A stretch of DNA of 64,000 bases from a virus (lineage: Duplodnaviria > Caudoviricetes), in the IMG/VR virus record IMGVR_UViG_3300028624_000003, positions 128,001 through 192,000 of that record; one strand, 5' to 3'. The notes under the pieces are model-generated. The model did not search any database. It saw nothing but the letters and a program-made list of their open reading frames with translations, and was not told where the DNA came from. Shown here piece after piece: positions 12,108-45,080 of the stretch (position 1 is the stretch's first letter; every line of letters begins with the position of its first letter). Position numbers and translations under genes: made by a program.

Positions 12108-13175
12108 ATGCTGCTGATGGAGTTACCGGATGCCGGAAGAAAGATTATTGAGGAAGTCAGGTATCCCGATCTTTCACAAGCAGAAAGAGTATTTTCTTTT
12201 CCGGAACCTACTGCACACTTTGTATCTACCGGTGTCACTAGTAACGACGAGTTTTCTTCTATCATCGACGGAGACCCTGTTGTAAAATCTTTTCTATCGA
12301 TGAAGATAAATCTGGGGCACATCGTACGTCCTACAAACCGGTGCAAAGGACTCTTCCTTTATGTAAAAGGAGATCTCACTGTAGAAGGTACCCTCTCCAT
12401 GACTGCCAGAGGCTGTCAAGGAAGTGGTAAATACGTAGGAATCGATAAGTACAAAAGATCTGTATTTTTCGATGAGACTGACATCTTCTCCAGATATCGG
12501 AATATCCTAACCATCTCGAAGATTGGTGGATTAGGAGGTGCTGCGAGAATTGCTACCACAAGCGGTACTGGCAAGTATCAAATTCTTCCGGGTAATAATG
12601 GTGAAAGTATTCTCAATGGTTCCGGAGGTGGAGGTTCTGGTTGTGCGTTTTCTTCACATGGTGGTACCGTTACGTCAGGAAGAGGTGCATCTGGTACATC
12701 TTTCTCTGGTGGGGCTGGAGGCGGCGGATGCTGTAACGTAACCAACTCTGTGAATGGGTACAACGCAGCAGAAGAAGGTGGCGCCGGTGGTGCTGGTAGA
12801 GTATCGATACCTAGCGGAAATGGATTGACTCGTGCATCTGGTGGCGGTGCTGGTAACCCTGGAGGCGCGCCTCATTCCGTCAACGGAGGTACAGGTGTCA
12901 GTGGGTCTATTGGTACTGGCGGACTACTGATCTTATTTGTAGAAGGCAATATTCTCATCGGTAATTCCGGAGCGATTGAATCTTGTGGCTGTTCCGGCGG
13001 TCGAGGAGAAACTGCTTCTGGTGGAGGATCAGGAGGCGGGATTGTCGTTATCGCATGCGGTGGACAATTATTCAATCCGGACCGCGTCAGTGTGGCAGGA
13101 GGAGCTGGTGGGATAAACGGCCAGTACAACGGCGGAGCAGGTGGAGATGGTTCCAAGATTATAACTGCGATGTAA
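12108..13175 (+). CDS. Glycine-rich tail/adhesin-like protein, paralog 1
   Basis: LPDAGR start, PTNRCKG, and poly-Gly blocks (GTSFSGGAGGGG, GGGAGNPGG, SGGGSGGG) shared with the genes at 35442 and 44007. Confidence 0.75.
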   Translation: MLLMELPDAGRKIIEEVRYPDLSQAERVFSFPEPTAHFVSTGVTSNDEFSSIIDGDPVVKSFLSMKINLGHIVRPTNRCKGLFLYVKGDLTVEGTLSMTARGCQGSGKYVGIDKYKRSVFFDETDIFSRYRNILTISKIGGLGGAARIATTSGTGKYQILPGNNGESILNGSGGGGSGCAFSSHGGTVTSGRGASGTSFSGGAGGGGCCNVTNSVNGYNAAEEGGAGGAGRVSIPSGNGLTRASGGGAGNPGGAPHSVNGGTGVSGSIGTGGLLILFVEGNILIGNSGAIESCGCSGGRGETASGGGSGGGIVVIACGGQLFNPDRVSVAGGAGGINGQYNGGAGGDGSKIITAM

Positions 13176-13275: not shown

Positions 13276-13866
13276 ATGAAAATTCACCTGTTCAACGACT
13301 CCGAAAACTTGAAAATATATCGACAACAGATGGTGGCTTGTACCGGTCACCGATTTGTAAAAAACGAAGAGTTTTCCAATCTTCAAGAAGGTGATATCGA
13401 GTACAACATTCGCAGGATGCTGAGGGACGCAATAGACGTAGCCCACCGCCGCTACGGGAAGAACATATTCATTTCCGGTGGAGCTACTGGTACAGATCAG
13501 TGGTTTGCACTGGAAGTACTGAAACTTAAAGAACTCGTTGATGATGTCATGCTGATCATCGCGAAACCATTCCCTTCGCAGGATATCCGTTGGCCGCTAG
13601 CTATTCGCGAGAAATTCCATTGGCTTTGTAGTCAAGCAGATCTCATCGTAGATGTTAATCCAGATCCATACGCAGCATGGAAGATGCATGCCAGAAATGC
13701 GTGGATGGTGGATCACTCATCAATGCTGATCGCGATGCACTGCGATGGGGTGGATGTCGGAGGGACTGCAGCTTGCCTTAGTTATGCCCACAAAAAGAGA
13801 GCATTCATTTACGAAATAGATCCCGCCAATCAAGGCTCAATCAGACTCTATAATGAACCGGAGTAG
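13276..13866 (+). CDS. SLOG family (YspA/DUF1273-like) protein
   Basis: CTGHR, FISGGATGTDQW, RNAWMVDHS..LIA and GGTA motifs. Confidence 0.85.
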   Translation: MKIHLFNDSENLKIYRQQMVACTGHRFVKNEEFSNLQEGDIEYNIRRMLRDAIDVAHRRYGKNIFISGGATGTDQWFALEVLKLKELVDDVMLIIAKPFPSQDIRWPLAIREKFHWLCSQADLIVDVNPDPYAAWKMHARNAWMVDHSSMLIAMHCDGVDVGGTAACLSYAHKKRAFIYEIDPANQGSIRLYNEPE

Positions 13867-14254
13867 TAACGTGCTCAAAATCTTTTCTAAGTTCAGTGAC
13901 CATGGCCGTAATCTGCTGTCGAAATATCGTCAGTTCACCAAAACCACGTCAGTGTACGACAAAGACCACACACTGGAATATCTGTCACTCGGACTTGTGA
14001 GTGAAGCTGGCGAGGTCGCAGGTGCAATAAAACGTGTGTTTCGTGGTGATAAGAAAAAGTACTCAGGAATAGACCAGATTCATCCTGAAGATAAAGAAAA
14101 AATCTTCAAGGAAATGGGTGATGTACTTTGGTATTTAACCGCGCTGGCTGATCAGTTAGGTACTACCGTAGATGACCTCATTGAGAACAATATGGACAAG
14201 CTCACTGACAGAAAGAAGCGCGACGTTCTCAAAGGTAACGGAGATGATCGGTAA
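13853..14254 (+). CDS. mazG: MazG-like nucleoside triphosphate pyrophosphohydrolase
   Basis: LGLVSEAGEV...KEMGDVLWY...N.DKL..R......GNGDDR, EXXE/EXXD metal motif. Confidence 0.88.
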   Translation: MNRSSNVLKIFSKFSDHGRNLLSKYRQFTKTTSVYDKDHTLEYLSLGLVSEAGEVAGAIKRVFRGDKKKYSGIDQIHPEDKEKIFKEMGDVLWYLTALADQLGTTVDDLIENNMDKLTDRKKRDVLKGNGDDR

Positions 14255-17251: not shown

Positions 17252-17352
17252 ACTAAAATTCGAGGTATTATTTATTTTTTGGTAAGATATAAAATCGACG
17301 TGTATGGTATGTCCGTAAGGATATCTATCAGAAAATCATAATGGAGTTATTC

Positions 17353-20300
17353 ATGCACACACTCATTTGTACGGTAAAGCGTGATGGTAAAACTGAAGTA
17401 CCTTTTGATGCAAACAAAATCTCTGTGGCCATTTCCAAGGCCGCACATGCATCCGGTGAACCGGTTGATGCCGCGTCATGTACCGCCAAAGTGCTGCTCG
17501 CTCTGTCGGAAGCATCCGTTGATGGTAAGGTAGGAGTCGAAACGATTCAGGACGAAGTCGAACGAGTTCTGATGATGAATGATCACTACCTGACAGCAAA
17601 GAAGTACATCATTTACCGTCAGCATCGTGCCGACGGTCGTGCGTTCAAAATCTCCACTTTGACCGACCTCGTAGATGAATATCTTGGAAAGTGCGAATGG
17701 TCCATCAAAGAAAACTCAAACATGGACTTCTCTCTTCAGGGTCTTAACCAGTATGTGACAGCCAAGGCGATGAGTGCGTATTGGTTGGCAAAGATATTCC
17801 CGCCTGATGTGCGTGAAGCTCATAATAAGGGTACGATCCACGTACATGACCTCAATCTTCTTGCACCGTACTGCTGCGGCTGGGATTTGAGACAACTTCT
17901 CCTTGTCGGATTCAGCGGGGTCGAAGGATCCAATGACTCCAAGCCAGCAAAGCATTTCCAACAGATACTGGGACAGTGCTGGAACTTCCTTTTCACACTT
18001 CAAGGAGAAGCTGCGGGTGCACAGGCATTCAGTAACTTCGATACCTACCTCGCTCCGTTCATCAGGTTTGACAAGCTTTCGTACCGTGAAGTGAAGAAAG
18101 CTCTTCAGACATTTTTCCACAACATGACTACCAAAACACGTGTCGGATTCCAGTGCGTACCTGATACATACACGTGTCTCACTCCTGAAGGTTGGAAGTA
18201 CCATCACGAACTGCAGCCAGGTGACGAAATTTACGTCTTTGATGTGAATACTGGGCAGATCCGGTTGGATGTACTTACTCACGTGAATACGTACGAGTAT
18301 CGTGGGGAGATGATCCAGTTTACTGGTCGTAAGTTGAAGATGATGACGACCCCCAATCACAGGACGATCCGTCGCAAGTTCAACTCCAACAAATACGTGA
18401 TCGAGACTTCTGGTGATATATACGAGAAGTACGACACTCCAATCGATATTCCTCTGGCGGGTCACGTGAATCGTCAAGGCGTGGACATGACAGATGATGA
18501 GATCCGTCTGCTCGGTTGGGCGCTTACTGATGCTCACATGGACAATCATGGCACACGCATTCGTATCTATCAATCTCCCAAAAAGTACGCTCACGAAATT
18601 GCTCGTCTACTTACCAGACTCAATGCCGATTGGTATGCAGCTCCTGCTGGTGGTGGTGGCTATGGAGATGAAGTGTACAGATTTGACGTCAAGGGTGATC
18701 TTGCCCGAATGATACTCGACTACACTGCCGGATGTCGTGAGGCAATTCCGCTGCACTTCATGAACAACGCATCAGTGGATCAGATTCATGTGTTGCTGGA
18801 TACAATGATTCTTGCCGACGGCACGATCGAAGAAAGTGGACGTATTCGGATAGCCAAGAAAAATGACTACATGGCAGAATGCATACAAACTCTGCTGGTG
18901 CTGTCTGGATACGGTTCTACAAGAAATCGTCGTCTGTCTTGTACCGACACAGTGTCTGTATACAAGAAGCCGATCGCTACGACAAGAACAGAAGTCGTGG
19001 ATTATGAGGGTGTGGTTTGGTGTCCTACGACGGATACTGGCACATTCATCTGCAGAGCTGAAGACGGTACACCGTTCATCACGGGAAACTCTCCGTTTAC
19101 AAATATCACAATGGACTTGACTGTACCTCGGTACATGAAAGATGAACCAGTCATTCGTGGTGGTGAATTTACCGACTACACTTACGGTGAGTTCCAAGAA
19201 GAAATGAATATTTTCAATCGTGCACTTTGCGAAGTCATGATTGAAGGCGATGCATCTGGGCGCCAGTTCTCTTTCCCCATTCCTACATACAGCATCACCA
19301 AGGATTTCGACTGGGACAACGAAGTTCTCGAACCTCTTTGGAAGCTGACTGCGATGTACGGGGCACCCTACTTTACCAACTACGTGAATTCGGATCTCAA
19401 TCCGGAAGACGTACGGTCCATGTGTCCGCTTCACCCCGAAGAAAAGATTCATGTCAAGATAAATGGTTCATGGATGAACATGACCATCTACGCAGTGTAC
19501 TCCTTCTTAGCGAACAAGATGGATAAGTCCGAAGTGTACGTGATGCACAAGGGTAAAGAGATACCTGTGACTGGCGTTTCTGTACATGCTGCGGAGACGT
19601 TTGTACGTATCAGGACTGTACTCGATCCTGATGGAGTCATATTCGAGGGCGGCCATCACCAACCGTTCCGTACTGACGGTCTTGGACCTATGAAAAAGTC
19701 CACAGCTCGGTCGTTGAGAGTCGGGGAATACCTGCCTTACAGTGAATCTACTCGGGAAAACGTGGGATGTCCTGACGACTGCTTTGCTCAGGATGGTTAC
19801 GTGTTTGCAAAGATCACCCACAAGGAAATTCTGGGCAAGATTCATCCTTACGCTTACTGCATCGAAGTTGGTACGGAAGACCACTTGTTCGATCTGGAGC
19901 CCGGTGGTCTCGTGACGCACAACTGCAGACTGCAACTCGATCTTACGACGTTACGTCGTCGTGGTGGTGGTCAATTTGGTGCCAATCCTTTGACTGGTTC
20001 CATCGGTGTCGTCACTCTCAACCTGCCTGCCATGGCTTACAACGCAAAGGGTGACAAATCCAAGTTCTTCGAAGCAATCATCGATGGAATGGAAATGGCC
20101 CGAGAGATCTTGACTCTGAAGCGAGAGTTTGTCGAGAAGAACGTGACCCTTGGGCTGTACCCCTACACCAGACGGTATCTTGAAGATGTCGCGATGGTGG
20201 CTGAGAATGTCAAGGGAAAGAAAGAGTACATGTACAACCACTTCTCTACCATTGGGATAGTCGGTGGTAACGAGGCATGTCTCAACCTTCTTGGCAAGTC

Positions 20301-20922
20301 CATCATGGATGATGAAGGGAAGGATCTCATGATCGAAGTACTGACGATGATGCGCGAGCGTTGCCAGAAGTACGCAGAAGAGACAGGGTATCCGTTCAAC
20401 CTCGAAGCTACTCCTGCAGAAGGTGTAAGCTATCGTTTGGCTAAGCTTGATCAGGACCAATACCCTGACATTATCACGGCATCCAGTTGTGTATGCGGTG
20501 CAGATCCTTTCTACACCAACTCCACACAGGTTCCTGTCAATGCGACCACGGATATCGTGGAAGTCTGCGACAACCAAGACGATTTGCAGACACTGTACAC
20601 TGGCGGTACCGTGATGCACGTCATGCTCGGAGAAGCCGTAAAGGATCCTACTGTTGTGAAGAACTTGGTACGAAAGCTCTGCTCCAGCTATCGTATCCCG
20701 TACTTCACGATCTCTCCCAACTATTCCGTGTGTGCCAATCACGGATATCTGAAGGGAGTACAGGATTCGTGTCCCAAATGCGGTGGAGATACTGAGATCT
20801 ACTCTCGTGTGGTAGGTTTCTATACTCCTGTCAGTAGATGGAACAAGGGCAAGGTTCAGGAGTTCTCGATGCGTAACACGTACGAGACCAGCGCAGTCCC
20901 GCTTGGCGAAGAAGATAAGTAA
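17353..20922 (+). CDS. nrdD: Anaerobic (class III) ribonucleoside-triphosphate reductase with ATP cone and two inteins
   Basis: VKRDG ATP cone, IHVHDL, YCCGW, GAQAF, EATPAEG..YRLA, Zn site CANH..CPKC, glycyl-radical loop YSRVVGF. Confidence 0.95.
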   Translation: MHTLICTVKRDGKTEVPFDANKISVAISKAAHASGEPVDAASCTAKVLLALSEASVDGKVGVETIQDEVERVLMMNDHYLTAKKYIIYRQHRADGRAFKISTLTDLVDEYLGKCEWSIKENSNMDFSLQGLNQYVTAKAMSAYWLAKIFPPDVREAHNKGTIHVHDLNLLAPYCCGWDLRQLLLVGFSGVEGSNDSKPAKHFQQILGQCWNFLFTLQGEAAGAQAFSNFDTYLAPFIRFDKLSYREVKKALQTFFHNMTTKTRVGFQCVPDTYTCLTPEGWKYHHELQPGDEIYVFDVNTGQIRLDVLTHVNTYEYRGEMIQFTGRKLKMMTTPNHRTIRRKFNSNKYVIETSGDIYEKYDTPIDIPLAGHVNRQGVDMTDDEIRLLGWALTDAHMDNHGTRIRIYQSPKKYAHEIARLLTRLNADWYAAPAGGGGYGDEVYRFDVKGDLARMILDYTAGCREAIPLHFMNNASVDQIHVLLDTMILADGTIEESGRIRIAKKNDYMAECIQTLLVLSGYGSTRNRRLSCTDTVSVYKKPIATTRTEVVDYEGVVWCPTTDTGTFICRAEDGTPFITGNSPFTNITMDLTVPRYMKDEPVIRGGEFTDYTYGEFQEEMNIFNRALCEVMIEGDASGRQFSFPIPTYSITKDFDWDNEVLEPLWKLTAMYGAPYFTNYVNSDLNPEDVRSMCPLHPEEKIHVKINGSWMNMTIYAVYSFLANKMDKSEVYVMHKGKEIPVTGVSVHAAETFVRIRTVLDPDGVIFEGGHHQPFRTDGLGPMKKSTARSLRVGEYLPYSESTRENVGCPDDCFAQDGYVFAKITHKEILGKIHPYAYCIEVGTEDHLFDLEPGGLVTHNCRLQLDLTTLRRRGGGQFGANPLTGSIGVVTLNLPAMAYNAKGDKSKFFEAIIDGMEMAREILTLKREFVEKNVTLGLYPYTRRYLEDVAMVAENVKGKKEYMYNHFSTIGIVGGNEACLNLLGKSIMDDEGKDLMIEVLTMMRERCQKYAEETGYPFNLEATPAEGVSYRLAKLDQDQYPDIITASSCVCGADPFYTNSTQVPVNATTDIVEVCDNQDDLQTLYTGGTVMHVMLGEAVKDPTVVKNLVRKLCSSYRIPYFTISPNYSVCANHGYLKGVQDSCPKCGGDTEIYSRVVGFYTPVSRWNKGKVQEFSMRNTYETSAVPLGEEDK
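18154..19089 (+). mobile_element. Intein 1 in NrdD (312 aa) with LAGLIDADG-type endonuclease domain
   Basis: GFQ|CVPDT...TPNH...VWCP...ITGN|SPFTN; removal restores GFQSPFTN; LLGWALTDA and LLDTMILADG motifs. Confidence 0.9.
19426..19923 (+). mobile_element. Mini-intein 2 in the NrdD active-site finger loop (166 aa, apparently Pro-initiated)
   Basis: RSMC|PLHPEEKI...AYCIEV...LVTHN|CRL; removal restores SMCCRL. Confidence 0.85.
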
Positions 20923-21052: not shown

Positions 21053-21448
21053 ATGTTGAAAGTTATAGGTCACACGTCCACGCTTTTCTCCAGTGTGATA
21101 CGTGAATTTCTGACTACATTCTACAGTATGGAGTACTGTGAATATAATCTCTTAGTAATTTTTCGTGGAGAGTGCACTAAGTTACCAGAAGAAATACTAG
21201 AAAAGATCAGAACTGAAATCGTCGAAAAGATACCAGCGTCTGCATTGCGAATATATTTGGAGTATACTGATGTTGTAGATAGTGTTGCAAAATACAAAGT
21301 CTGGACATTCGGTGAAGCTTCTAAGTATCTACCAATGCATCTGGATATGGATCCATCGCGATTCCGTGTATGGTCCGCGGAATTTACCAGATGCGCACTA
21401 CGTGCGGATGGCCCTGTAGACTTAGTCCATGTAACTGGTGAGGAGTAA
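21053..21448 (+). CDS. Hypothetical protein
   Basis: GGAGG RBS; first gene after an early promoter. Confidence 0.7.
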   Translation: MLKVIGHTSTLFSSVIREFLTTFYSMEYCEYNLLVIFRGECTKLPEEILEKIRTEIVEKIPASALRIYLEYTDVVDSVAKYKVWTFGEASKYLPMHLDMDPSRFRVWSAEFTRCALRADGPVDLVHVTGEE

Positions 21449-21451
21449 ATC

Positions 21452-22207
21452 ATGGGTTCGCGTTTTCTTGTTCGTGTGTACTATACTTCCAATCACAAAC
21501 ACGACATGGTCATGCGTCAGTTCCTGTGGCGGTACAAAGATCGTACAGTAGCTCACAGTACAACAGACGGTATCGAATACTACGATTTCGATATCTGCAA
21601 TGACGACTTCAACATCGATTCGATGCAACAAGACTGCGAACGAGTCACGCACTCCTCGAAGTGGGTCAAGGGTATTGATCTGAAAAATCTCCTGATCACG
21701 GTTCATACGGAACAAGGGAAAGCTGTCTTCACGTTCGGGAATCTCCCACAAGAATCCATCCCTGTCGAATTCCGGTTCACGCCTCCTCGTACGGTATCAG
21801 AACAGCATGAGGCGAATCTCATCGAGCAGTTCGACCTGCTGGTACGCAACCGGCTGGAAATGACCGATCTCCTTGACAACAATCCGAATCCGGTCGTACT
21901 GCTCTGCGGGTCCACCAAGTACTACGAAGACTTCGACCTCATTGAGAAGTGCCTTACACTCAATGGAGTGATCACTCTCAGTACAGGTCGAGTGTTCGGA
22001 CATCGTGGCGACATCGACATGTCCGGACCGGTTAAGAAGAGTCTCGATCGGCTTCACTTCAAGAAGATCGAACTGTGCGATGCTGTGTTTATCGTCAACC
22101 CCGAGCTCCGCATCGGCCTGTCGACATGTGATGAACTGCACTACGCAAAAGCACTCGGAAAACGAGTCATGTACATGATTAACCCGGTGGAATGCACTGA
22201 AGATTAG
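21452..22207 (+). CDS. Two-domain protein with a C-terminal nucleoside 2-deoxyribosyltransferase-like fold
   Basis: VVLLCGSTK...LDRLHFKKIELCDAVFIVN....IGLST..ELHYAKALGKRV. Confidence 0.65.
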   Translation: MGSRFLVRVYYTSNHKHDMVMRQFLWRYKDRTVAHSTTDGIEYYDFDICNDDFNIDSMQQDCERVTHSSKWVKGIDLKNLLITVHTEQGKAVFTFGNLPQESIPVEFRFTPPRTVSEQHEANLIEQFDLLVRNRLEMTDLLDNNPNPVVLLCGSTKYYEDFDLIEKCLTLNGVITLSTGRVFGHRGDIDMSGPVKKSLDRLHFKKIELCDAVFIVNPELRIGLSTCDELHYAKALGKRVMYMINPVECTED

Positions 22208-22229
22208 TTCAATATAGAGAGGTACTCAA

Positions 22230-22499
22230 ATGCTCGACGACGGAAAAACCGAAGAAAATCTGACCGCAAGCGATTTCCCTGCTGTCCACATCTACACCAA
22301 GCACAGCGACGGAAATGTGCTAGATGCGGTGTACACCCACCCCGACGGAGATCGTACCACGTACGTCCAATACGTAACCGACCCTGACGATGGAGACTCT
22401 GTGATGATGAGTGAATCCATCGTCCAGCTCATCGAATCACTCGGGTACACCGAGTGTGACGAAGTGAACTCCGAAGAAATCTTCGTAGAAGAAGACTAA
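22230..22499 (+). CDS. Small acidic hypothetical protein
   Basis: GAGG RBS; 89 aa, Asp/Glu-rich. Confidence 0.7.
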   Translation: MLDDGKTEENLTASDFPAVHIYTKHSDGNVLDAVYTHPDGDRTTYVQYVTDPDDGDSVMMSESIVQLIESLGYTECDEVNSEEIFVEED

Positions 22500-22515
22500 C
22501 TGAAAGCTGACACCC

Positions 22516-22548
22516 AGTGACGAGGTACTCTCAAGGTACCTCGTCACT
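22516..22548 (+). terminator. Hairpin/terminator
   Basis: AGTGACGAGGTAC-tctcaag-GTACCTCGTCACT. Confidence 0.7.
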
Positions 22549-22578
22549 ATTTGTAACCCTAACTATACGGAGAACAAA

Positions 22579-24909
22579 ATGTTTAACAATTTCGAGTGGA
22601 GTGATGCGCTGGACTGTCTCGTGTGGGTACTGGGGAAGAATTCTGATCTGGTCGTGTTTGATGAAGCCACAGTCTTTCGTGTGGCTTTGAGAAACAGTGA
22701 CGGATCTATTTCTTCAAAAGACGCGCATATGGTGACTTTTCCCATGACCCTTCCGTGGTGCGGAGAATGCATCATCGCAGTGGGTACAGACAACACGTTG
22801 TACATCGGTCTATGTGACGGAAATGGCATCAAATCATACATAGCTCCACTCCCACAAGAGCACTGGATGCGGTATATGCGCGAAACCACGTGGAATAACC
22901 GCAATGCTGCGAATGTCGCGATCAGTCTGTTGCAACAGATCGGTGAGCGCACTCGTAAGTACGAAGCCAGGACCGACCAAGAAAAGTACGATTCCGTCAC
23001 CAACGACGAACGGGTGCGGAAGGGTATTTTCGAACGCGCAGTAGATGCATTCGTTCAGCAGTTTTACGAGCACAGCTTGCTTGACGGCATATGGATCGGC
23101 TACACGACGCTCTCAGCCCATACTGCGTCTGGCATGCACAGATCACCGTCGCCACAACCTGCCATCAAATATCAGGACGTACGTACCGGTGAAATGTTTA
23201 CAGTGTCTCAGGCTGGAGGTTGTACGTATGTGGGTATTTCGATGAATGACGATGCTCCCCACTCGCACGAGGTCATCTCGCAGCGCGATGTCGAGGATTA
23301 CTTCGATCGCATCATCACGGACGACAATTGTCTTGCTATCCGTATGTTCAAACGCGTGTCCGGCTACGGACGAAACTTGTTCGATTGCATTATGGAGGAT
23401 GACGAAGGACTTCTGCGACTCTACTTCGAGCAGTGCGAAAAGACGGGCACCGTGCATGACACCGATCTGTCCCGTTACTTCTCCCCCTGTCATACTCGTA
23501 GAAATAGTAGACCCAGCGATTGTTGTAGCAAACTGATTTGCGTAAACGGACGCGAATTCGTTGTGGCAGTCGACAAGTACACGCTCGATGCGTCTATATA
23601 TCTACTTGAATCTTACGGGGGTAGGAAATATTCGAGTAGTGCGTGCACTATCCGAATATACAGGAAAGACTTCCTGAACTATCTTGACACGTATCGCAGG
23701 CAGAACCCCGGCACGCTCCTGCATTTCGAGGATCGGATCAGAACGCATGACAAAGCTGACCGCGACTTCGATCCCAGAATAGATCGCAGTGCATTTGGGT
23801 TGTACGACCATACGCCGACCCAGAACAACAAGAACTCCGGTCTGGACACGATCGTCGAGATGATTGATGATCTGCAGAAAACTGTGGACAACTTCGAAAG
23901 GATGCCGATAAGCATATTCCGGTCAATACTCGGTGCACTACGGTGCATCTTGGCTAGCAAGACTACAGAGGCTAACGTCAAAACACTTGAACGCAGCCTC
24001 GTTGCTTTGTATGACTCGGTGATGCGCAAAGTCGATCCACTCACTCGACTCGAAGCGAAAGAAGTACTCGATTCGATCGGTACAGTATTTCCGCGCCGTC
24101 AAGTAAACGAGCAGATACGAGCCAAGCTGCAACGCAAATACTGCAAAGTTGAATCGAATCCGCTCGTACTGACGATGCTCACGCTCTGCGACCTGACAGC
24201 GTCGTTCACGCAAGATCGTGCGGAGTCGAGTTCTCTGGACACGACTATACAGTATCTCGCTAACCTGGACGTGCTTCTGGCGAGCGTAGCCAAAATAATG
24301 TCCACACCCAACTGCAGTACCGTATTCGAACTGGTCATTATGAACATGAGGGAACTCGTCGTAACGATGCCGATCGAAACGGACAGAGACTTCGATAAGG
24401 TAGACGACTGGCAGAAGTTCATTCAGTTCAAGCCGCTACTCCGCGCAGTACGTTACAGGCTGCGCGATTATGCGGATGAGCATGGTGACAAGAACGTACG
24501 GAAGTTTCGTAGGGTGAAACCTGAAGCAGAAACTGCAGCAGAAACTGTCGCACAGAAGATCGCAGACCTCCCGACCATTCCCTTGGATCAGGATAGCCAG
24601 AAAGATGAAGAGAATGCTACGTCCGAACCCACCAAGTTCGTTACGATGGTCGAGGCGTTGAAAGAAGTCAGTTCCAGAAATCCGAAAGACATCTCGATTC
24701 TGGATACTATCCGAGCTCTCGACTTGAAGGAGTTGCGGAACAAGAAACACTACACTGCGAAATACCTTCGCGAAAAGGGCATCACGTCTGCTGCACAGTG
24801 GGCGGAGCTCTCCGAGCCGGATGCGGTGTACCTTCTGGGACGGTCCAAGTACTACGCGAAGATGAAGCAAGCCTTCCACAATCGCGGTATTCTGTGGCCC
24901 AGCGCGTAA
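22579..24909 (+). CDS. Large hypothetical protein with a possible C-terminal HhH/alpha-CTD-like domain
   Basis: 776 aa, GGAG RBS; acidic linker then TAKYLREKGITSAAQWAELSE. Confidence 0.75.
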   Translation: MFNNFEWSDALDCLVWVLGKNSDLVVFDEATVFRVALRNSDGSISSKDAHMVTFPMTLPWCGECIIAVGTDNTLYIGLCDGNGIKSYIAPLPQEHWMRYMRETTWNNRNAANVAISLLQQIGERTRKYEARTDQEKYDSVTNDERVRKGIFERAVDAFVQQFYEHSLLDGIWIGYTTLSAHTASGMHRSPSPQPAIKYQDVRTGEMFTVSQAGGCTYVGISMNDDAPHSHEVISQRDVEDYFDRIITDDNCLAIRMFKRVSGYGRNLFDCIMEDDEGLLRLYFEQCEKTGTVHDTDLSRYFSPCHTRRNSRPSDCCSKLICVNGREFVVAVDKYTLDASIYLLESYGGRKYSSSACTIRIYRKDFLNYLDTYRRQNPGTLLHFEDRIRTHDKADRDFDPRIDRSAFGLYDHTPTQNNKNSGLDTIVEMIDDLQKTVDNFERMPISIFRSILGALRCILASKTTEANVKTLERSLVALYDSVMRKVDPLTRLEAKEVLDSIGTVFPRRQVNEQIRAKLQRKYCKVESNPLVLTMLTLCDLTASFTQDRAESSSLDTTIQYLANLDVLLASVAKIMSTPNCSTVFELVIMNMRELVVTMPIETDRDFDKVDDWQKFIQFKPLLRAVRYRLRDYADEHGDKNVRKFRRVKPEAETAAETVAQKIADLPTIPLDQDSQKDEENATSEPTKFVTMVEALKEVSSRNPKDISILDTIRALDLKELRNKKHYTAKYLREKGITSAAQWAELSEPDAVYLLGRSKYYAKMKQAFHNRGILWPSA

Positions 24910-24918
24910 ACAATTAAT

Positions 24919-24948
24919 CGTAGGTGGGGTCATATGACCCCACCTACG
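24919..24948 (+). terminator. Hairpin/terminator
   Basis: CGTAGGTGGGGTC-atat-GACCCCACCTACG. Confidence 0.7.
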
Positions 24949-24964
24949 TCACATAGGAGTAATC

Positions 24965-25540
24965 ATGCTGATTGACATTTTTGTAAATCTTCCCAATTAT
25001 GAACGAGCTTATGCCAGTGAAATGGTCAAAAAGACATTACAAGAAGCTCATGCCATTCGTGAACATACTCCCAATGTGATAGAGCTTGAACTGTGGTACA
25101 CCAACAATCGCGGAATGCTCGGGAATAGGAAACCTAACCCGATGGTCAGATGCGTCTACATTCCGCACGATGCCACAGGTATTCCTCTCAGTGAACATAT
25201 CGTAGGACAGTACTACGGTACTTACGAGTACAAGTTCACTCCGAGGTTCCAGAACGAGCTACGCCGCACTTTCAAGATCAGTTCACCCGATAGCATCGCT
25301 CGGCTCCATCCGGGTACTGAAGGTCCTGATGGTCGCAGGTACATGTACATGCCACAGATGTCCATGAACCCAAATGCGTACATTTTCATTCCGTATCAGA
25401 ATCCCAAACATCTACTGACGCAGTCAGTACTGTGCATGAGCCGGTACGATAAAGCGCGCACGGCGCTGGATGCTATCTATGAAGATCATGGCGAACCAGT
25501 CAAGTATGCGACGTTTTCTTTCATGTACATGCAACAATAA
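24965..25540 (+). CDS. Hypothetical protein
   Basis: AGGAG RBS, 191 aa. Confidence 0.75.
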   Translation: MLIDIFVNLPNYERAYASEMVKKTLQEAHAIREHTPNVIELELWYTNNRGMLGNRKPNPMVRCVYIPHDATGIPLSEHIVGQYYGTYEYKFTPRFQNELRRTFKISSPDSIARLHPGTEGPDGRRYMYMPQMSMNPNAYIFIPYQNPKHLLTQSVLCMSRYDKARTALDAIYEDHGEPVKYATFSFMYMQQ

Positions 25541-25568
25541 GTTGCTAAAAACAAAAAAGGAGCGATAC

Positions 25569-26126
25569 GTGGAAGATACAAGATACACAAGAAGACTTCC
25601 GCGAGTCTTGAATAAGAAAGAAGTACCGAGACTCATGGAGAATATGGTCTACATCGGTAGACCATCTAAATGGGGTAACCCATTCCGAGTTCAGTACAAA
25701 AACGGGGTAGAAGTACCTTTTTCGCGCATGTCTTCTATCATTCAGTATGAAGAGTATCTGCAGATGAGTCATTCCCCGAAAGACTATCTGCACGAGTTAC
25801 GTGGCAAAGATTTGGTATGTTTTTGTGCGCCTCTCGCGTGTCACGGCGACATACTGATCAGATACGCCAATCGTGTGTACTGTCCGCACTGCAATAGTCT
25901 GGAAATAGGGTACACTACGTCCAGTCCCGAATACCTCGCAGAGTTTGGCGAAGAAGTTACCACCTATGCGCTACAGGGGTTCGACGGTAACTGGAATTAC
26001 ATAAGCGAACGCTACGACTCGTGGAGTTGGCTAAACTCTGCATCTGGTACGATGCACTGCATGACTTGCGGCCTATCGATAAACGTCGAAGACTATTACA
26101 ATTCGAATTTTAACATGGAGAAATAG
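25569..26126 (+). CDS. DUF4326-domain protein fused to a Zn-ribbon-like region
   Basis: VYIGRPSKWGNPF...ELRGKDLVCFCAPLACHGDIL, then CPHC...CMTC; AAGGAG RBS before GTG 25569. Confidence 0.8.
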   Translation: MEDTRYTRRLPRVLNKKEVPRLMENMVYIGRPSKWGNPFRVQYKNGVEVPFSRMSSIIQYEEYLQMSHSPKDYLHELRGKDLVCFCAPLACHGDILIRYANRVYCPHCNSLEIGYTTSSPEYLAEFGEEVTTYALQGFDGNWNYISERYDSWSWLNSASGTMHCMTCGLSINVEDYYNSNFNMEK

Positions 26127-26137
26127 AGGAGCTCAAG

Positions 26138-26494
26138 ATGGCTGACAAGAGTGACAAATGGTTCTGGTTCATGCTTCCTCTTATCCCTATCACAATCGTA
26201 CTCTACGATATATCGATGACCAGACATTCTTCGAGTACCGAAGTCTCTGCAGTGGTACAGCAGAAGGTATCTCAGCAAGTAAACGAAACCATTCCCGGGT
26301 ACCGTGTGGTAAGCTACAGAAAAGAACTCAGCAGTCCGTGCGCAATGAACGAACGTGGTATGACGTTTGTCGCTGCGCAAGAAACTGAAGATGGGATCTT
26401 CATGAAAGATCATATCGTACTCGGCATCGCATGTCTCAAAGACAGTGCAACAGACGTGTCTTCTGTGTATATCGACACGAATATCAGACGATGA
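26138..26494 (+). CDS. Hypothetical membrane-anchored protein
   Basis: GAGGAG RBS; N-terminal hydrophobic helix. Confidence 0.7.
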   Translation: MADKSDKWFWFMLPLIPITIVLYDISMTRHSSSTEVSAVVQQKVSQQVNETIPGYRVVSYRKELSSPCAMNERGMTFVAAQETEDGIFMKDHIVLGIACLKDSATDVSSVYIDTNIRR

Positions 26495-26499
26495 GAATA

Positions 26500-26530
26500 G
26501 GAGTAGGAGGTCCTCACGGGCCTCCTCTCC
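26500..26530. terminator. Hairpin between convergent genes
   Basis: GGAG.AGGAGGTCC...GGGCCTCCTCTCC followed by an A/T tract. Confidence 0.6.
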
Positions 26531-26532
26531 AT

Positions 26533-27765
26533 TTATTTTTTGTTAAGCCACCACTCGAGAGACTTCTTCAGTCGAATATGTTCTTCTAGACATTTTCTCA
26601 GTTCAGTATTACCCGCCGAAGTGATATGATTTCTCTTCATCAGCGAATCACTATTCATTGCGTAGAGATCGTCTATGTTCTCTACACAAAAACGAATCCA
26701 CTGTTCTGTCTTTTCTTTGCTGACTAATGGAGCTAGAATTGCGTATGGGCTAGGACACTCATGAATCTGTTCGGGAAGAGGACCCAGTCCAATGTAGTCA
26801 GGAAGTCGATCTTTGTGTGTCAGTCCGAGATCAATGAGAGAATCTACGTAGTTCACAAAATTCATGAACACATGAGTAGGTTCTATTAGTCGAATCGCTT
26901 CGAGATACTGTCTCTTGGAAAACGTAGCAATACGCATTACTCTCTTTGTGACTGTCGTATATTCCTTTTCTACTCCGAGATCTTCGAATGTGATTTCTTC
27001 GGAGTCATCGAAGAATGGCCCAGAGTTACCTACTTCAATCCCATCACGTGTAGGGTTGCCCACACGAATAGGAAACGTACGGAAACTGAGGATGACATTA
27101 CCACAGTACTTGGGATGTAATCCCAGTTCACCGAGTATTGTCGCAGGAAGTACCGATCTCGATGTGCAGTGAGGATAGTTCAGACCATGGTTTAGATCCA
27201 GTCCCAATCCTTGACCAGTTTCTACCATTACACGGTAACCAGGGATCTCTTGAATATCACGACGAATGTCGTACTTACGAACGTACTCAGTGAGTCTAGG
27301 GTCGTGCTCTGCTACTAATCCAGTACGCATTATCTTGGCAGCTCTAGCTGCTCCAGATCCGGATTGAGTAGATGCTATTTTCTCGATGCCACCATGCGCA
27401 GCTTCTACTTCTTTGTCTTTCTGTGTGATGATGGCAGCACGAGGATGAATAAATACTCTGCCGTCGTCGATGTTGAACTCATCCATCTCCTTCATCAGTA
27501 GATCATAATCGATGACTGAATCTGCTGAGAAGTATACCCCGCATCTGTCATGAATTATGGCTGCCACTGGAATGAGATGGGTGACGTGTTTCTTGCCATT
27601 CCAGTAAAAGGTATGTCCTGCATTTGGAGAAGTAGTGCTACATGCCAGATGTACGATAGGAGCATCCATAGCTATTCTACAAGCAAGAGCTCCTTTACCT
27701 GTACTACCGAACGATCCATCGATGATCATGTTGACTTTATTAGGAAGAAGAAATGATTCGAACAT
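26533..27765 (-). CDS. purZ: PurZ-type N6-succino-2-amino-2'-deoxyadenylate synthase (PurA paralog of the Z-base pathway)
   Basis: GSTGKG (Ser in place of the catalytic Asp of PurA GDEGKG), SPNAGHT, STQSGSG, YPHCTSR, RTFPIRVGN, SGP...DSEE..F.DLG.E.EYTTVTK, VFMNF, YIGLGP, all colinear with cyanophage S-2L PurZ as I recall it; GGAGG RBS. Confidence 0.88.
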   Translation of the reverse strand: MFESFLLPNKVNMIIDGSFGSTGKGALACRIAMDAPIVHLACSTTSPNAGHTFYWNGKKHVTHLIPVAAIIHDRCGVYFSADSVIDYDLLMKEMDEFNIDDGRVFIHPRAAIITQKDKEVEAAHGGIEKIASTQSGSGAARAAKIMRTGLVAEHDPRLTEYVRKYDIRRDIQEIPGYRVMVETGQGLGLDLNHGLNYPHCTSRSVLPATILGELGLHPKYCGNVILSFRTFPIRVGNPTRDGIEVGNSGPFFDDSEEITFEDLGVEKEYTTVTKRVMRIATFSKRQYLEAIRLIEPTHVFMNFVNYVDSLIDLGLTHKDRLPDYIGLGPLPEQIHECPSPYAILAPLVSKEKTEQWIRFCVENIDDLYAMNSDSLMKRNHITSAGNTELRKCLEEHIRLKKSLEWWLNKK

Positions 27766-27848
27766 ATCGAAGTCCTCCGAAATACTGTGTGTATTATTGC
27801 TACTTCTCGTAAGAATTGATTTCTACGTACTGGACAAAAATACACAAA

Positions 27849-27864
27849 TATATTACTAAACTGA
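27849..27864 (+). promoter_or_regulatory. Early promoter motif
   Basis: TATATTAC taaac TGA. Confidence 0.75.
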
Positions 27865-27916
27865 TAGACCTTACGTAATTTTGATCTACACGTGTATTTC
27901 AAAGGAGGTGAGCCAT

Positions 27917-28036
27917 GTGGAGCCAATATTTTACATTATTGCAGTCATTCTAATGACTATCATTATTCTGGTTAAGATCGTAAAGCCGTCAGAGATTTCT
28001 CTTAAGATTAATCTCGCTAAGCCGCGGTGGAATTAA
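27917..28036 (+). CDS. Small hydrophobic peptide (39 aa; not in the ORF track)
   Basis: AAAGGAGGTGA RBS, GTG start, MEPIFYIIAVILMTIIILVKIVKPSEISLKINLAKPRWN; lies between a promoter and a hairpin. Confidence 0.6.
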   Translation: MEPIFYIIAVILMTIIILVKIVKPSEISLKINLAKPRWN

Positions 28037-35361: not shown

Positions 35362-35441
35362 CTTGAAATTTTATGTGCACTTAAATAAACAAATTGCAGC
35401 GTACTGAAATCTCTGCGTACCTTAAACTGAAGAGGACTGTT

Positions 35442-36506
35442 ATGGGCATCGTCTTTCACCTTCCAGACGCTGGACGTATTCTTCATCAGAAGTTCATCCC
35501 TCTTACTGCAGAGAGTATGTTTCAGTTCAACCTGAATCCTACTCAGGATTTCATGACCAACGGTGTCGTGACAAACGATGAATTCGTGTCCACGGTGGAT
35601 AGTCCTCCGGTGGTGAAGTCATTCCGGAATATGACCATCCAAGCTGGTCATACAGTACGACCTACGAACAGATGCAAAGGGATGTATCTGTACATCGCAG
35701 GAGATCTCACAATCAACGGTACTCTTTCTATGACACTCCGCGGAGCAAAGGGTCCCGGCAAGTACGTAGGTATGGATGCCAAGAATGGGCGTATCTACTA
35801 CCATCCGACGGATATCTTTACGTCTGTTGGACTACCGTTCATTACTCCCAATGGTGGTGCGATCACTGCGTATCCTCCCTACGACTATTGTGTCGATGGT
35901 AACCCCGGCACTGGCGGAGCGTGTGGTGGTGGTGGATCTGGTGGCAGGCATGCTGTACAGCCTGGAACAGCTAACGCTGGTCGCGGTGGTAATGGTACAT
36001 CGTTCTCGGGTGGTGCAGGCGGTGGTGGTGTATCTGTAAGAGGTGGTGCTACTACTTCAGGTACGGATGGCGAAGCCGACGGTGGTGCTGGTGGTATCGG
36101 TTACGGGCATAACCCTTCGCCGTATGTTAAGTCCGGTGGTGGCGGTGCTGGTAACCCAGGTGGCGCAGGACGTGGTAACGGTGGAGGATATGGACCCGGT
36201 GCTTCTGGTACCGGTGGACTCATCATTCTGATCGTCAAAGGAAAGATCATTTTCGGTCCGAATGGAAAGATTGAAGCCGCGGGTGGTGCTGGTGGATACG
36301 CACAGCCTAGCTGGACTTGGAATATGGCTTGGGGTTCTGGCGGTGGTGGTTCTGGCGGTGGTGCAATCCATTTGTTCACTGACCAGACGCTTACCACGGC
36401 AGATCAAGCTAAACTTCTCGTTCCCGGTGGGTTGGGTTACGTATCCGACGTACGTGGTGGTAATGGTGGAGCTGGATCCAAGATTATTCGTACCATTCCG
36501 AAATAA
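35442..36506 (+). CDS. Glycine-rich tail/adhesin-like protein, paralog 2
   Basis: GAGGA RBS before ATG 35442; same architecture as the genes at 12108 and 44007. Confidence 0.75.
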   Translation: MGIVFHLPDAGRILHQKFIPLTAESMFQFNLNPTQDFMTNGVVTNDEFVSTVDSPPVVKSFRNMTIQAGHTVRPTNRCKGMYLYIAGDLTINGTLSMTLRGAKGPGKYVGMDAKNGRIYYHPTDIFTSVGLPFITPNGGAITAYPPYDYCVDGNPGTGGACGGGGSGGRHAVQPGTANAGRGGNGTSFSGGAGGGGVSVRGGATTSGTDGEADGGAGGIGYGHNPSPYVKSGGGGAGNPGGAGRGNGGGYGPGASGTGGLIILIVKGKIIFGPNGKIEAAGGAGGYAQPSWTWNMAWGSGGGGSGGGAIHLFTDQTLTTADQAKLLVPGGLGYVSDVRGGNGGAGSKIIRTIPK

Positions 36507-44006: not shown

Positions 44007-45080
44007 ATGCCGTACCTGTTAGAACTACCTGACGCCGGACGCAATCTGATTCAAAAATTTTACGACATTCCTGCAGAAGGTATATTTACATTTTCGATGC
44101 CTACAGAAGAATTCGTATCTACCGGTGTCACTAGTAACGACGAATTTCCGTCAGTATTGGACGGAGATCCAGTAGTGAGATCTTTTAGTAAGATGACCAT
44201 TCAGGCTGGTCACATAGTTCGGCCTACGAACAGATGTAAAGGGATGTATTTGTTCGTAGAAGGTGATCTCATCATAGACGGCGAATTGACTATGACTGCA
44301 CGAGGAGCCAATGCTCCGGGTAAATTCGTAGGTATAGATCCACGTCGTGGGGTATTCATAAATTCGGAAGATATTTTCACTGCACTAGGACTCGCAGTAA
44401 TACAGCCGACAGGAGGAGCTGGTGCCCCTAAAAGAAGTATAGGTAGTGGAAATGAAAATTCGTATGGCGGCGGCGGTTATGCCGGAAGTCCGGGAATAAA
44501 CGGCGCCTGTGGTGGTGGAGGTGGTGGAGGATGTGAACACCAGAATGGTGGAAGTAGCACGGGAGGAGCAGGTTCGGAAGGTACTTCGTTCTCCGGTGGT
44601 GCAGGAGGTGGTGGCGTTGCTGCGGCTGGTCGTACTGTGACTGCGGGCAGTGGTCAGCCGAACGGAGGACCGGGTGGTAATGGCCGCTGTGATACCATAG
44701 ATTCGAATAACAAACGACGAGCAGTCGGGGGAGGAGCTGGAAATCCGGGTGGAGCTGGTCATAGAGTGGCTCCTTCTAATTATTCTGCATACTCTGGAGA
44801 GAATGGTACTGGAGGATTACTTATACTCGTAGTACAGGGTGATATAATTTTTGGCCCTGCAGGAAAGATAACTTCCAATGGATCCGGTGGTGGTAAAGGA
44901 CATAACGCGTCAGGTGGTGGATCAGGCGGAGGTGCTATTCACATATTCCATAAAGGAATTATAACTGATCCTACCAAAATACAAGCTCAAGGCGGCGCTG
45001 GCGCTACTTCTGCTGTAACTACAATTTATACTCGAGGCGGTAATGGTGGCGCGGGTTCTATTGTCATTACGAAAATCTAA
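44007..45080 (+). CDS. Glycine-rich tail/adhesin-like protein, paralog 3
   Basis: AAAGGAG RBS; LELPDAGR...PTNRCKG...poly-Gly blocks. Confidence 0.75.
   Translation: MPYLLELPDAGRNLIQKFYDIPAEGIFTFSMPTEEFVSTGVTSNDEFPSVLDGDPVVRSFSKMTIQAGHIVRPTNRCKGMYLFVEGDLIIDGELTMTARGANAPGKFVGIDPRRGVFINSEDIFTALGLAVIQPTGGAGAPKRSIGSGNENSYGGGGYAGSPGINGACGGGGGGGCEHQNGGSSTGGAGSEGTSFSGGAGGGGVAAAGRTVTAGSGQPNGGPGGNGRCDTIDSNNKRRAVGGGAGNPGGAGHRVAPSNYSAYSGENGTGGLLILVVQGDIIFGPAGKITSNGSGGGKGHNASGGGSGGGAIHIFHKGIITDPTKIQAQGGAGATSAVTTIYTRGGNGGAGSIVITKI

Follow-up and report, generated by a model that had tools for sequence, protein, structure and literature searches.

A stand-alone purZ-type gene in a chimallin-encoding, phiKZ-like jumbo phage and a possible partial A-to-Z substitution

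The window analysed here, a stretch of 64,000 nucleotides from a sewage-sludge virus, holds an intact open reading frame of 410 codons on the minus strand, the neighbouring genes all lying on the plus strand. The sequence-only reading had pointed out this lone minus-strand gene in a plus-strand region together with its motifs GSTGKG, SPNAGHT, RTFPIRVGN, EYTTVTK and VFMNF; the orientation was borne out by the neighbouring genes, and all five motifs are present in the frame. A Shine-Dalgarno-like sequence precedes the start codon, and a hairpin, putatively terminator-like, lies beyond the 3' end (Table 1). One metatranscriptome yielded a single 213-bp contig inside purZ at a depth of 2.6, too thin a signal to indicate expression, and one that may be DNA. 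On the other side of the gene, this strain has an insert of about 125 bp (27903-28036) before the next gene; three other strains lack it. A TATATTAC motif at 27849-27856 (+), which we take to resemble the phiKZ early promoter, points away from purZ.

Table 1. Position of purZ, of elements in and around it, and of the other genes discussed. Positions are those of the window unless marked as genome.
Feature	Position	Strand	Basis or remark
purZ-type gene, 410 aa, succino-amino-deoxyadenylate synthase-like, lone large-phage clade	26533..27765	-	sequence, profile and fold matches
Shine-Dalgarno-like GGAGGA	27773..27778	-	7 nt 5' of the purZ ATG; sequence
G+C-rich hairpin between purZ and the convergent upstream plus-strand gene	26505..26526	.	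sequence
Codon 277, ATG (Met), at the S-2L Arg280 position	26935..26937	-	alignment; private to this assembly
C-terminal extension of PurZ, residues about 341-410, two predicted helices	26536..26745	-	model and alignment
251-aa protein with C-terminal NDT-like (nucleoside deoxyribosyltransferase/dNMP hydrolase-like) domain	21452..22207	+	candidate partner
Nucleotide pyrophosphohydrolase of the MazG family, neither MazZ-1 nor MazZ-2	13853..14254	+	possible dGMP supplier
NrdD, anaerobic ribonucleoside-triphosphate reductase with ATP cone, dNTP supply	17341..20922	+	
DUF5664 (dATP/dGTP hydrolase family)	genome 102070-102885, outside the window		above Pfam cut-off
Chimallin	genome 112610-114238 (L006:17610-19235)		fold match

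The encoded protein matched the Pfam family of adenylosuccinate synthetases (PF00709, 1.6e-24). When solved structures were ranked by sequence, PurZ of S-2L came first (7ODX, 4e-45) and PurZ of phiVC8 second (5e-38), followed by weaker matches to archaeal PurA (7e-29), PurZ0 (5e-28) and bacterial PurA (3e-22 or weaker). The AlphaFold model (pLDDT 85.6) gave the same order in the fold ranking, again with 7ODX and phiVC8 PurZ as the closest. The NCBIfam model for PurZ (NF038379) was the top-scoring one and matched over the full length, yet the score of 216 bits did not reach the 300-bit cut-off; the remaining members of the clade that were tested were likewise under it (197-260 bits). Together with the signature residues described below, the sequence and fold rankings uphold the initial assignment to PurZ and rule out an ordinary PurA or a PurZ0.

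For the pocket comparison we used the residue roles of S-2L PurZ (PMC8342488). Ser21, aligned with S23 of S-2L, replaces Asp13 of PurA, and residues S21, N48, H51, T133, R147, Q185, R234, V235 and T270-T273 match their S-2L counterparts. The dGMP pocket and the 2'-deoxy gate (S-2L G22, N49, A50, T132, R146, Q190, C204, T205, R240, V241, T273) are kept in full, and so are the valine that bars a 2'-OH (Val235 here) and the TTVT loop. Y203 of S-2L is a histidine in our protein, as it is in 17 of the 42 PurZ proteins from clusters. The ATP-selecting pocket (S-2L N305, F306, Q308, G335, P336) is made up here of N302, F303, N305, G328 and P329, replacing TKxD. The alignment shows pockets predicted to be of the PurZ type for both dGMP and (d)ATP. 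An arginine at position 275 was considered as a PurA-like, ribose-accepting trait and dismissed, since PurZ proteins from clusters carry the same arginine.

Another position, residue 277, deserves attention. At the site of S-2L R280, after the TTVTK loop, arginine was found in 42 of 42 cluster-type PurZ and in 42 of 43 other rows of the lone clade, the last one being gapped. All nine conspecific proteins have Arg277; the arginine is thus invariant at the level of the species, and Met277 is confined to this assembly, as is a second change, Gly176. Met277 either arose by mutation in this strain or is an error in the consensus, and this allele may be impaired. The invariance of the site suggests that it is important for catalysis. 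We take Arg305 of E. coli PurA to be its equivalent and to support such an importance; a paper on this residue was not found in the literature covered, most of it outside subscription journals. From its sequence, the enzyme of the species, with Arg277, is most likely active. The helical tail of about 70 residues is confined to this species and the relative closest to it, G001 (64% identical), and evolves faster than the core.

In summary, the protein resembles PurZ of S-2L (7ODX) and phiVC8 (6FM1/6FKO/6TNH) in the serine for Asp13, the dGMP pocket, the ATP-type NF-x-N pocket, the TTVTK loop and the fold (TM 0.83 by target), at an identity of 33-37%. It differs from them by its separate clade, the C-terminal extension, the Met277 allele and the score below the NCBIfam cut-off. 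The gene differs as well, lying outside any purZ-mazZ-datZ cluster in a 221-kb genome with chimallin, whereas those phages have genomes of about 40 kb.

The source record is complete, with 220,982 bp and a 127-bp terminal repeat, and phiKZ-type core genes were found across it: capsid, internal head proteins, DnaB-like helicase, RNAP subunits and a family-B polymerase (PF20286). The phiKZ-like context deduced from the window therefore holds, and the DNA polymerase, to be looked for in the rest of the genome, turned out to be of the phiKZ type. The nucleus-type shield, at first only a guess, gained a gene: fold search identified a chimallin, for which sequence searches of PHROGs and the PDB gave no match. 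The nine best PDB matches of its model (pLDDT 87.9, 118-row alignment) were the chimallins of Goslar, phiPA3 and 201phi2-1, with E 3e-15 to 2e-10 and TM 0.6. The phage shares with these nucleus formers the chimallin fold, the usual place of the gene upstream of an RNAP subunit, the divergent family-B polymerase, the gp120-type capsid and the internal head proteins. The sequence of its chimallin is just 10-12% identical to those of the solved ones, and a nucleus is predicted for this uncultured phage. This highly divergent chimallin belongs to a family with 326 metagenomic representatives of about 520-560 aa. Pfam scans of the genome gave no match for tubulin (PhuZ). Other genes at genome positions 1-127000 encode ThyX, dCMP deaminase, NAD ligase, gyrase/topoisomerase subunits, MYG1 exonuclease, ClpP, a chaperonin-like match and thrombospondin type-1 domains in two proteins. 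Four paralogues of about 355 aa (window 12108-13175, 35394-36506 and 44007-45080; genome 107576-108640) are about 50% identical across their shared part and multiplied in relatives too; no Pfam family was found for them.

Runs from 13 studies of sludge, wastewater and digesters contained near-identical DNA, in many cases only a partial share of it. A digester study supplied a 24-kb contig that spans 21300 to 27903, and contigs of further studies bridge purZ to both flanks. A chimeric assembly at this locus, which would have undone the initial reading, is rejected on the basis of these independent contigs. Among the best 60 of 203 PurZ-matching phage records, no cultured phiKZ-like member was found.

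DatZ/HD, MazZ-1, MazZ-2, DUF550, dUTPase-type DutZ and PolA-type DpoZ were searched for in the complete genome with single sequences, with Pfam models and with profiles built by iteration over some 50 loci, an approach that a very divergent dATPase could escape. None was found, although the same DatZ search was positive in the controls S-2L, phiVC8 and Bhz20. The helpers DatZ and MazZ/DUF550, which the window had left to be sought elsewhere in the genome, are hence not part of the detectable gene set. DpoZ is also absent in S-2L. There are no Z-system genes clustered with purZ at this locus, and the three analogues that are present, DUF5664, MazG and the NDT-like protein, are all unlinked to it.

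DUF5664 of phage Wayne hydrolyses dATP and dGTP, dATP ten times faster (PMC12884076). The DUF5664 gene of the present genome is syntenic in the relatives G002, G012, G018 and G030, absent from the complete, purZ-bearing G005 and retained in G012, whose purZ is a remnant. Its orthologue in the closest relative, G001 (L248:3106-3930), has dropped to 19% identity and lost the Pfam match, while its neighbours are 56-62% identical. DUF5664 thus tracks the lineage, and we rejected it as an obligate partner of purZ. MazG is a possible supplier of dGMP; as a purZ partner it is unsupported, and the other purZ-bearing phiKZ-like genomes do not share it. A YspA SLOG protein (window 13276-13866) adjoins it. 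NrdD, a protein of 1193 aa with an HNC motif near residue 860, contains a LAGLIDADG-like domain that is probably an intein, and its anaerobic type suggests an anaerobic host.

The NDT-like gene was singled out post hoc, from about 20 candidates, by comparing 12 jumbo proteomes. The family is present in four of the five phiKZ-like genomes with intact purZ, in G002 at a distance of 250 bp from it. The 28 phiKZ-like records that lack purZ, 8 of them at least 89% complete and many of them fragments, all lack the family too. The co-occurrence of the two genes in phiKZ-like phages (Fisher p about 0.006, post hoc and among related genomes) is suggestive only. Members of the family were likewise found in phages devoid of purZ, among them CcrColossus and A-1(L), and in such phages lie beside thymidylate genes. 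Compared with DmtZ of Ghobes, the domain gave a weak profile match (E 0.005) in which Glu228 aligned with the catalytic Glu103; of the DmtZ triad Tyr6/Asn77/Glu103, the tyrosine is missing at the first strand. The domain has no sequence match in Pfam or the PDB, and its Atlas scores of 0.87 serve as leads only. The phage is reminiscent of PurZ0 phages in that it lacks DatZ and that its synthetase comes with DUF5664 and an NDT-fold protein. It differs from them by the ATP-type PurZ pocket and the poorer PurZ0 match of its synthetase, by the absence of DutZ and DpoZ, by the unlinked genes and by an NDT-like protein that is not a DmtZ orthologue.

Contigs as long as 290 kb carry the closest relatives of this purZ (about 40-66% identity). 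In a midpoint-rooted tree of 103 sequences, with neither PurA nor PurZ0 as outgroup, these relatives fell into one branch or two adjacent ones (support 0.99 and 0.90, with no support for uniting them) apart from PurZ of small phages. No DatZ, MazZ or PolA lies within 6-10 kb of purZ in this clade, whereas most small-phage loci have them, and across 47 loci there was no conserved neighbour beyond lineage synteny. The neighbours are accessory genes: PARP, RNA ligase, RnlB-like antitoxin, NADAR, DUF4326, dUTPase and RNR. Carriers comprise several phiKZ-like genomes, including G001, G002, G005, G011, L022 and L160, and other large phages. Near-identical copies in genomes of 26% and 47% GC suggest transfer. 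In G012/G013, the 3' half of purZ alone is left at the same locus. This 5'-truncated remnant and the absence of the gene from the 8 phiKZ-like records that are at least 89% complete make purZ an accessory, losable gene. Judging from tree and loci, the gene described here belongs to a distinct clade whose members pass from one large phage to another as solitary accessory genes.

A cultured phage with a comparable gene is available. Flavobacterium phage MaF61 (168 kb) is also large and has an unclustered PurA-family gene of the Ser type, annotated as a putative adenylosuccinate synthetase (L010:9989-11332), and is therefore directly testable for Z. Unlike the clade described here, its gene sits on a long separate branch; the phage is not phiKZ-like and has a T4-like gene set with an HD protein elsewhere. 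Some further loci came up in the course of these comparisons. A 735-kb phage (LR756501 345353-346123) has a PurA-family gene and an NDT-like gene. Downstream of a relative of the lone purZ, a four-gene block (L015:11966-19502) with weak JetB-like (DUF6063) and JetD_C matches around a 1470-aa protein is possibly Wadjet-like. On a 264-kb contig of 24% GC (L020:10001-21032), genes for an epimerase and for methyltransferases come after lone purZ and may make up a further DNA-modification cluster.

The comparison of A-containing with GC-only palindromes, proposed as a check on Z in the DNA, revealed no Z-like signature. Observed/expected ratios of GC-only 6-bp palindromes were 0.67, 0.31 and 0.36 in three small phages with Z clusters, which avoid them, and 1.03 in the present genome (G000), which does not. 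We regard this as mild evidence at best against wholesale Z, given that the controls avoid certain A-containing sites too and that a nucleus alters restriction pressure. The most avoided palindrome of the genome was AACGTT, with 5 occurrences against about 33 expected (p 2e-9). This could not be used as evidence against Z because some A-containing sites are also avoided by the control Z phages phiVC8 and Bhz20, and data for an AACGTT-cutting enzyme on Z-DNA were not found in the literature. GGATCC is absent from G002, G018, G022, G030 and G041. The avoidance of AACGTT in this genome and the absence of GGATCC in these five indicate that phages encoding chimallin still show restriction-site avoidance.

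As a best explanation we tentatively propose, at somewhat less than even chances, an active dGMP enzyme that gives a partial, dispensable substitution of A by Z. By analogy with characterised PurZ, the enzyme would join dGMP and aspartate in the infected cell using ATP or dATP, and lyase and kinases of the host would complete dZTP. DUF5664, and perhaps MazG, would supply dGMP and lower dATP, while removal of dAMP might fall to the NDT-like protein. The polymerase, a family-B enzyme of the phiKZ type and not a DpoZ, would accept both dATP and dZTP. Partial Z would then make the DNA more tolerant of restriction during those stages in which it lies outside the chimallin shell. A precedent exists in that incomplete Z clusters in E. 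coli led to a lower but non-zero substitution, most polymerases not distinguishing A from Z (PMC8342488). A more far-reaching version, which we consider doubtful, would combine lone-clade PurZ, DUF5664, an NDT-like dAMP remover and the family-B polymerase into a third toolkit free of DatZ and DpoZ; it would provide substantial Z in nucleus-forming jumbo phages, with multisubunit RNA polymerases reading Z-DNA inside the chimallin shell.

Alternatively, PurZ may act on nucleotide pools and leave little Z in the DNA. Its product could be a substitute or source for A when host defences drain dATP, or the enzyme could convert dIMP/IMP to adenylate with ATP instead of GTP, for instance against a defence with dITP signalling. 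The company of accessory genes in place of DatZ, MazZ and PolA would fit such a role, as would the low GC content of many carriers (24-36%, versus mostly above 50% for cluster-type Z loci) and the palindrome result. The phage nucleus of chimalliviruses, moreover, already shields replicating DNA. We nevertheless find this explanation rather unlikely. Every feature that specifies dGMP is kept, including Ser21 and the ribose gate at Val235, and the residues separating the lone clade from cluster PurZ fall outside the listed pocket residues. Any dZTP made would in part be incorporated by non-selective polymerases, and a paper on PurZ with dIMP was not found in the literature searched, to which subscription journals contributed little.

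It is quite improbable that purZ is a recently acquired passenger, inactive or decaying in this lineage. The private changes Met277 and Gly176 may hint in this direction, as may the remnant in G012/G013, the varied insertion sites and a GC3 of 0.39, lower than the genome average of 0.50 +/- 0.07. The nine conspecific PurZ proteins, which come from several studies, are however intact with few changes, and the neighbourhood of purZ is the same in G001. Between the purZ genes of the two genomes synonymous sites are saturated while pN of the core is 0.19 (64% identical relative), which indicates that purZ has been kept for long under purifying selection.

The sequence-only reading had allowed for full as well as partial replacement of A. 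The partial form stays plausible with DUF5664, MazG and the NDT-like protein at hand. A full Z genome, in which DUF5664 and the NDT-like protein would take on the removal of dATP that DutZ/DUF5664/DmtZ carry out in PurZ0 phages, and the family-B polymerase would have turned Z-selective, is the least likely explanation: convergence on differing dATP-removing enzymes is documented (PMC12884076), S-2L attains full Z with a non-selective polymerase (PMC8342488), and our phage has all three analogues, but DatZ, MazZ, DutZ and DpoZ are absent, the analogues are unlinked to purZ and inconsistent among carriers, GC-only palindromes are not avoided, the phage's own NrdD makes dATP, and purZ is patchy, reduced to a remnant in a relative with a 57% identical polymerase and mutated at an invariant arginine in this strain, none of which a genome dependent on Z should be able to afford.

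Published surveys of PurZ phages list as partners DatZ/MazZ or DutZ/DmtZ, together with PolA or PrimPol, and the characterised Z genomes are all sipho- or podoviruses of about 40 kb with clustered helpers. The literature accessible to us, mostly other than subscription journals, contained no paper that connects PurZ with jumbo phages. The helper-less purZ clade, widespread in phages of 100-290 kb, would mean either that partial Z is common and overlooked or that PurZ serves a further function in conflicts over nucleotide pools. If Z is present in the DNA, the phage described here would be the first in which it occurs along with a phage nucleus, and would be a source of Z-adapted enzymes, namely a family-B polymerase and RNA polymerases.
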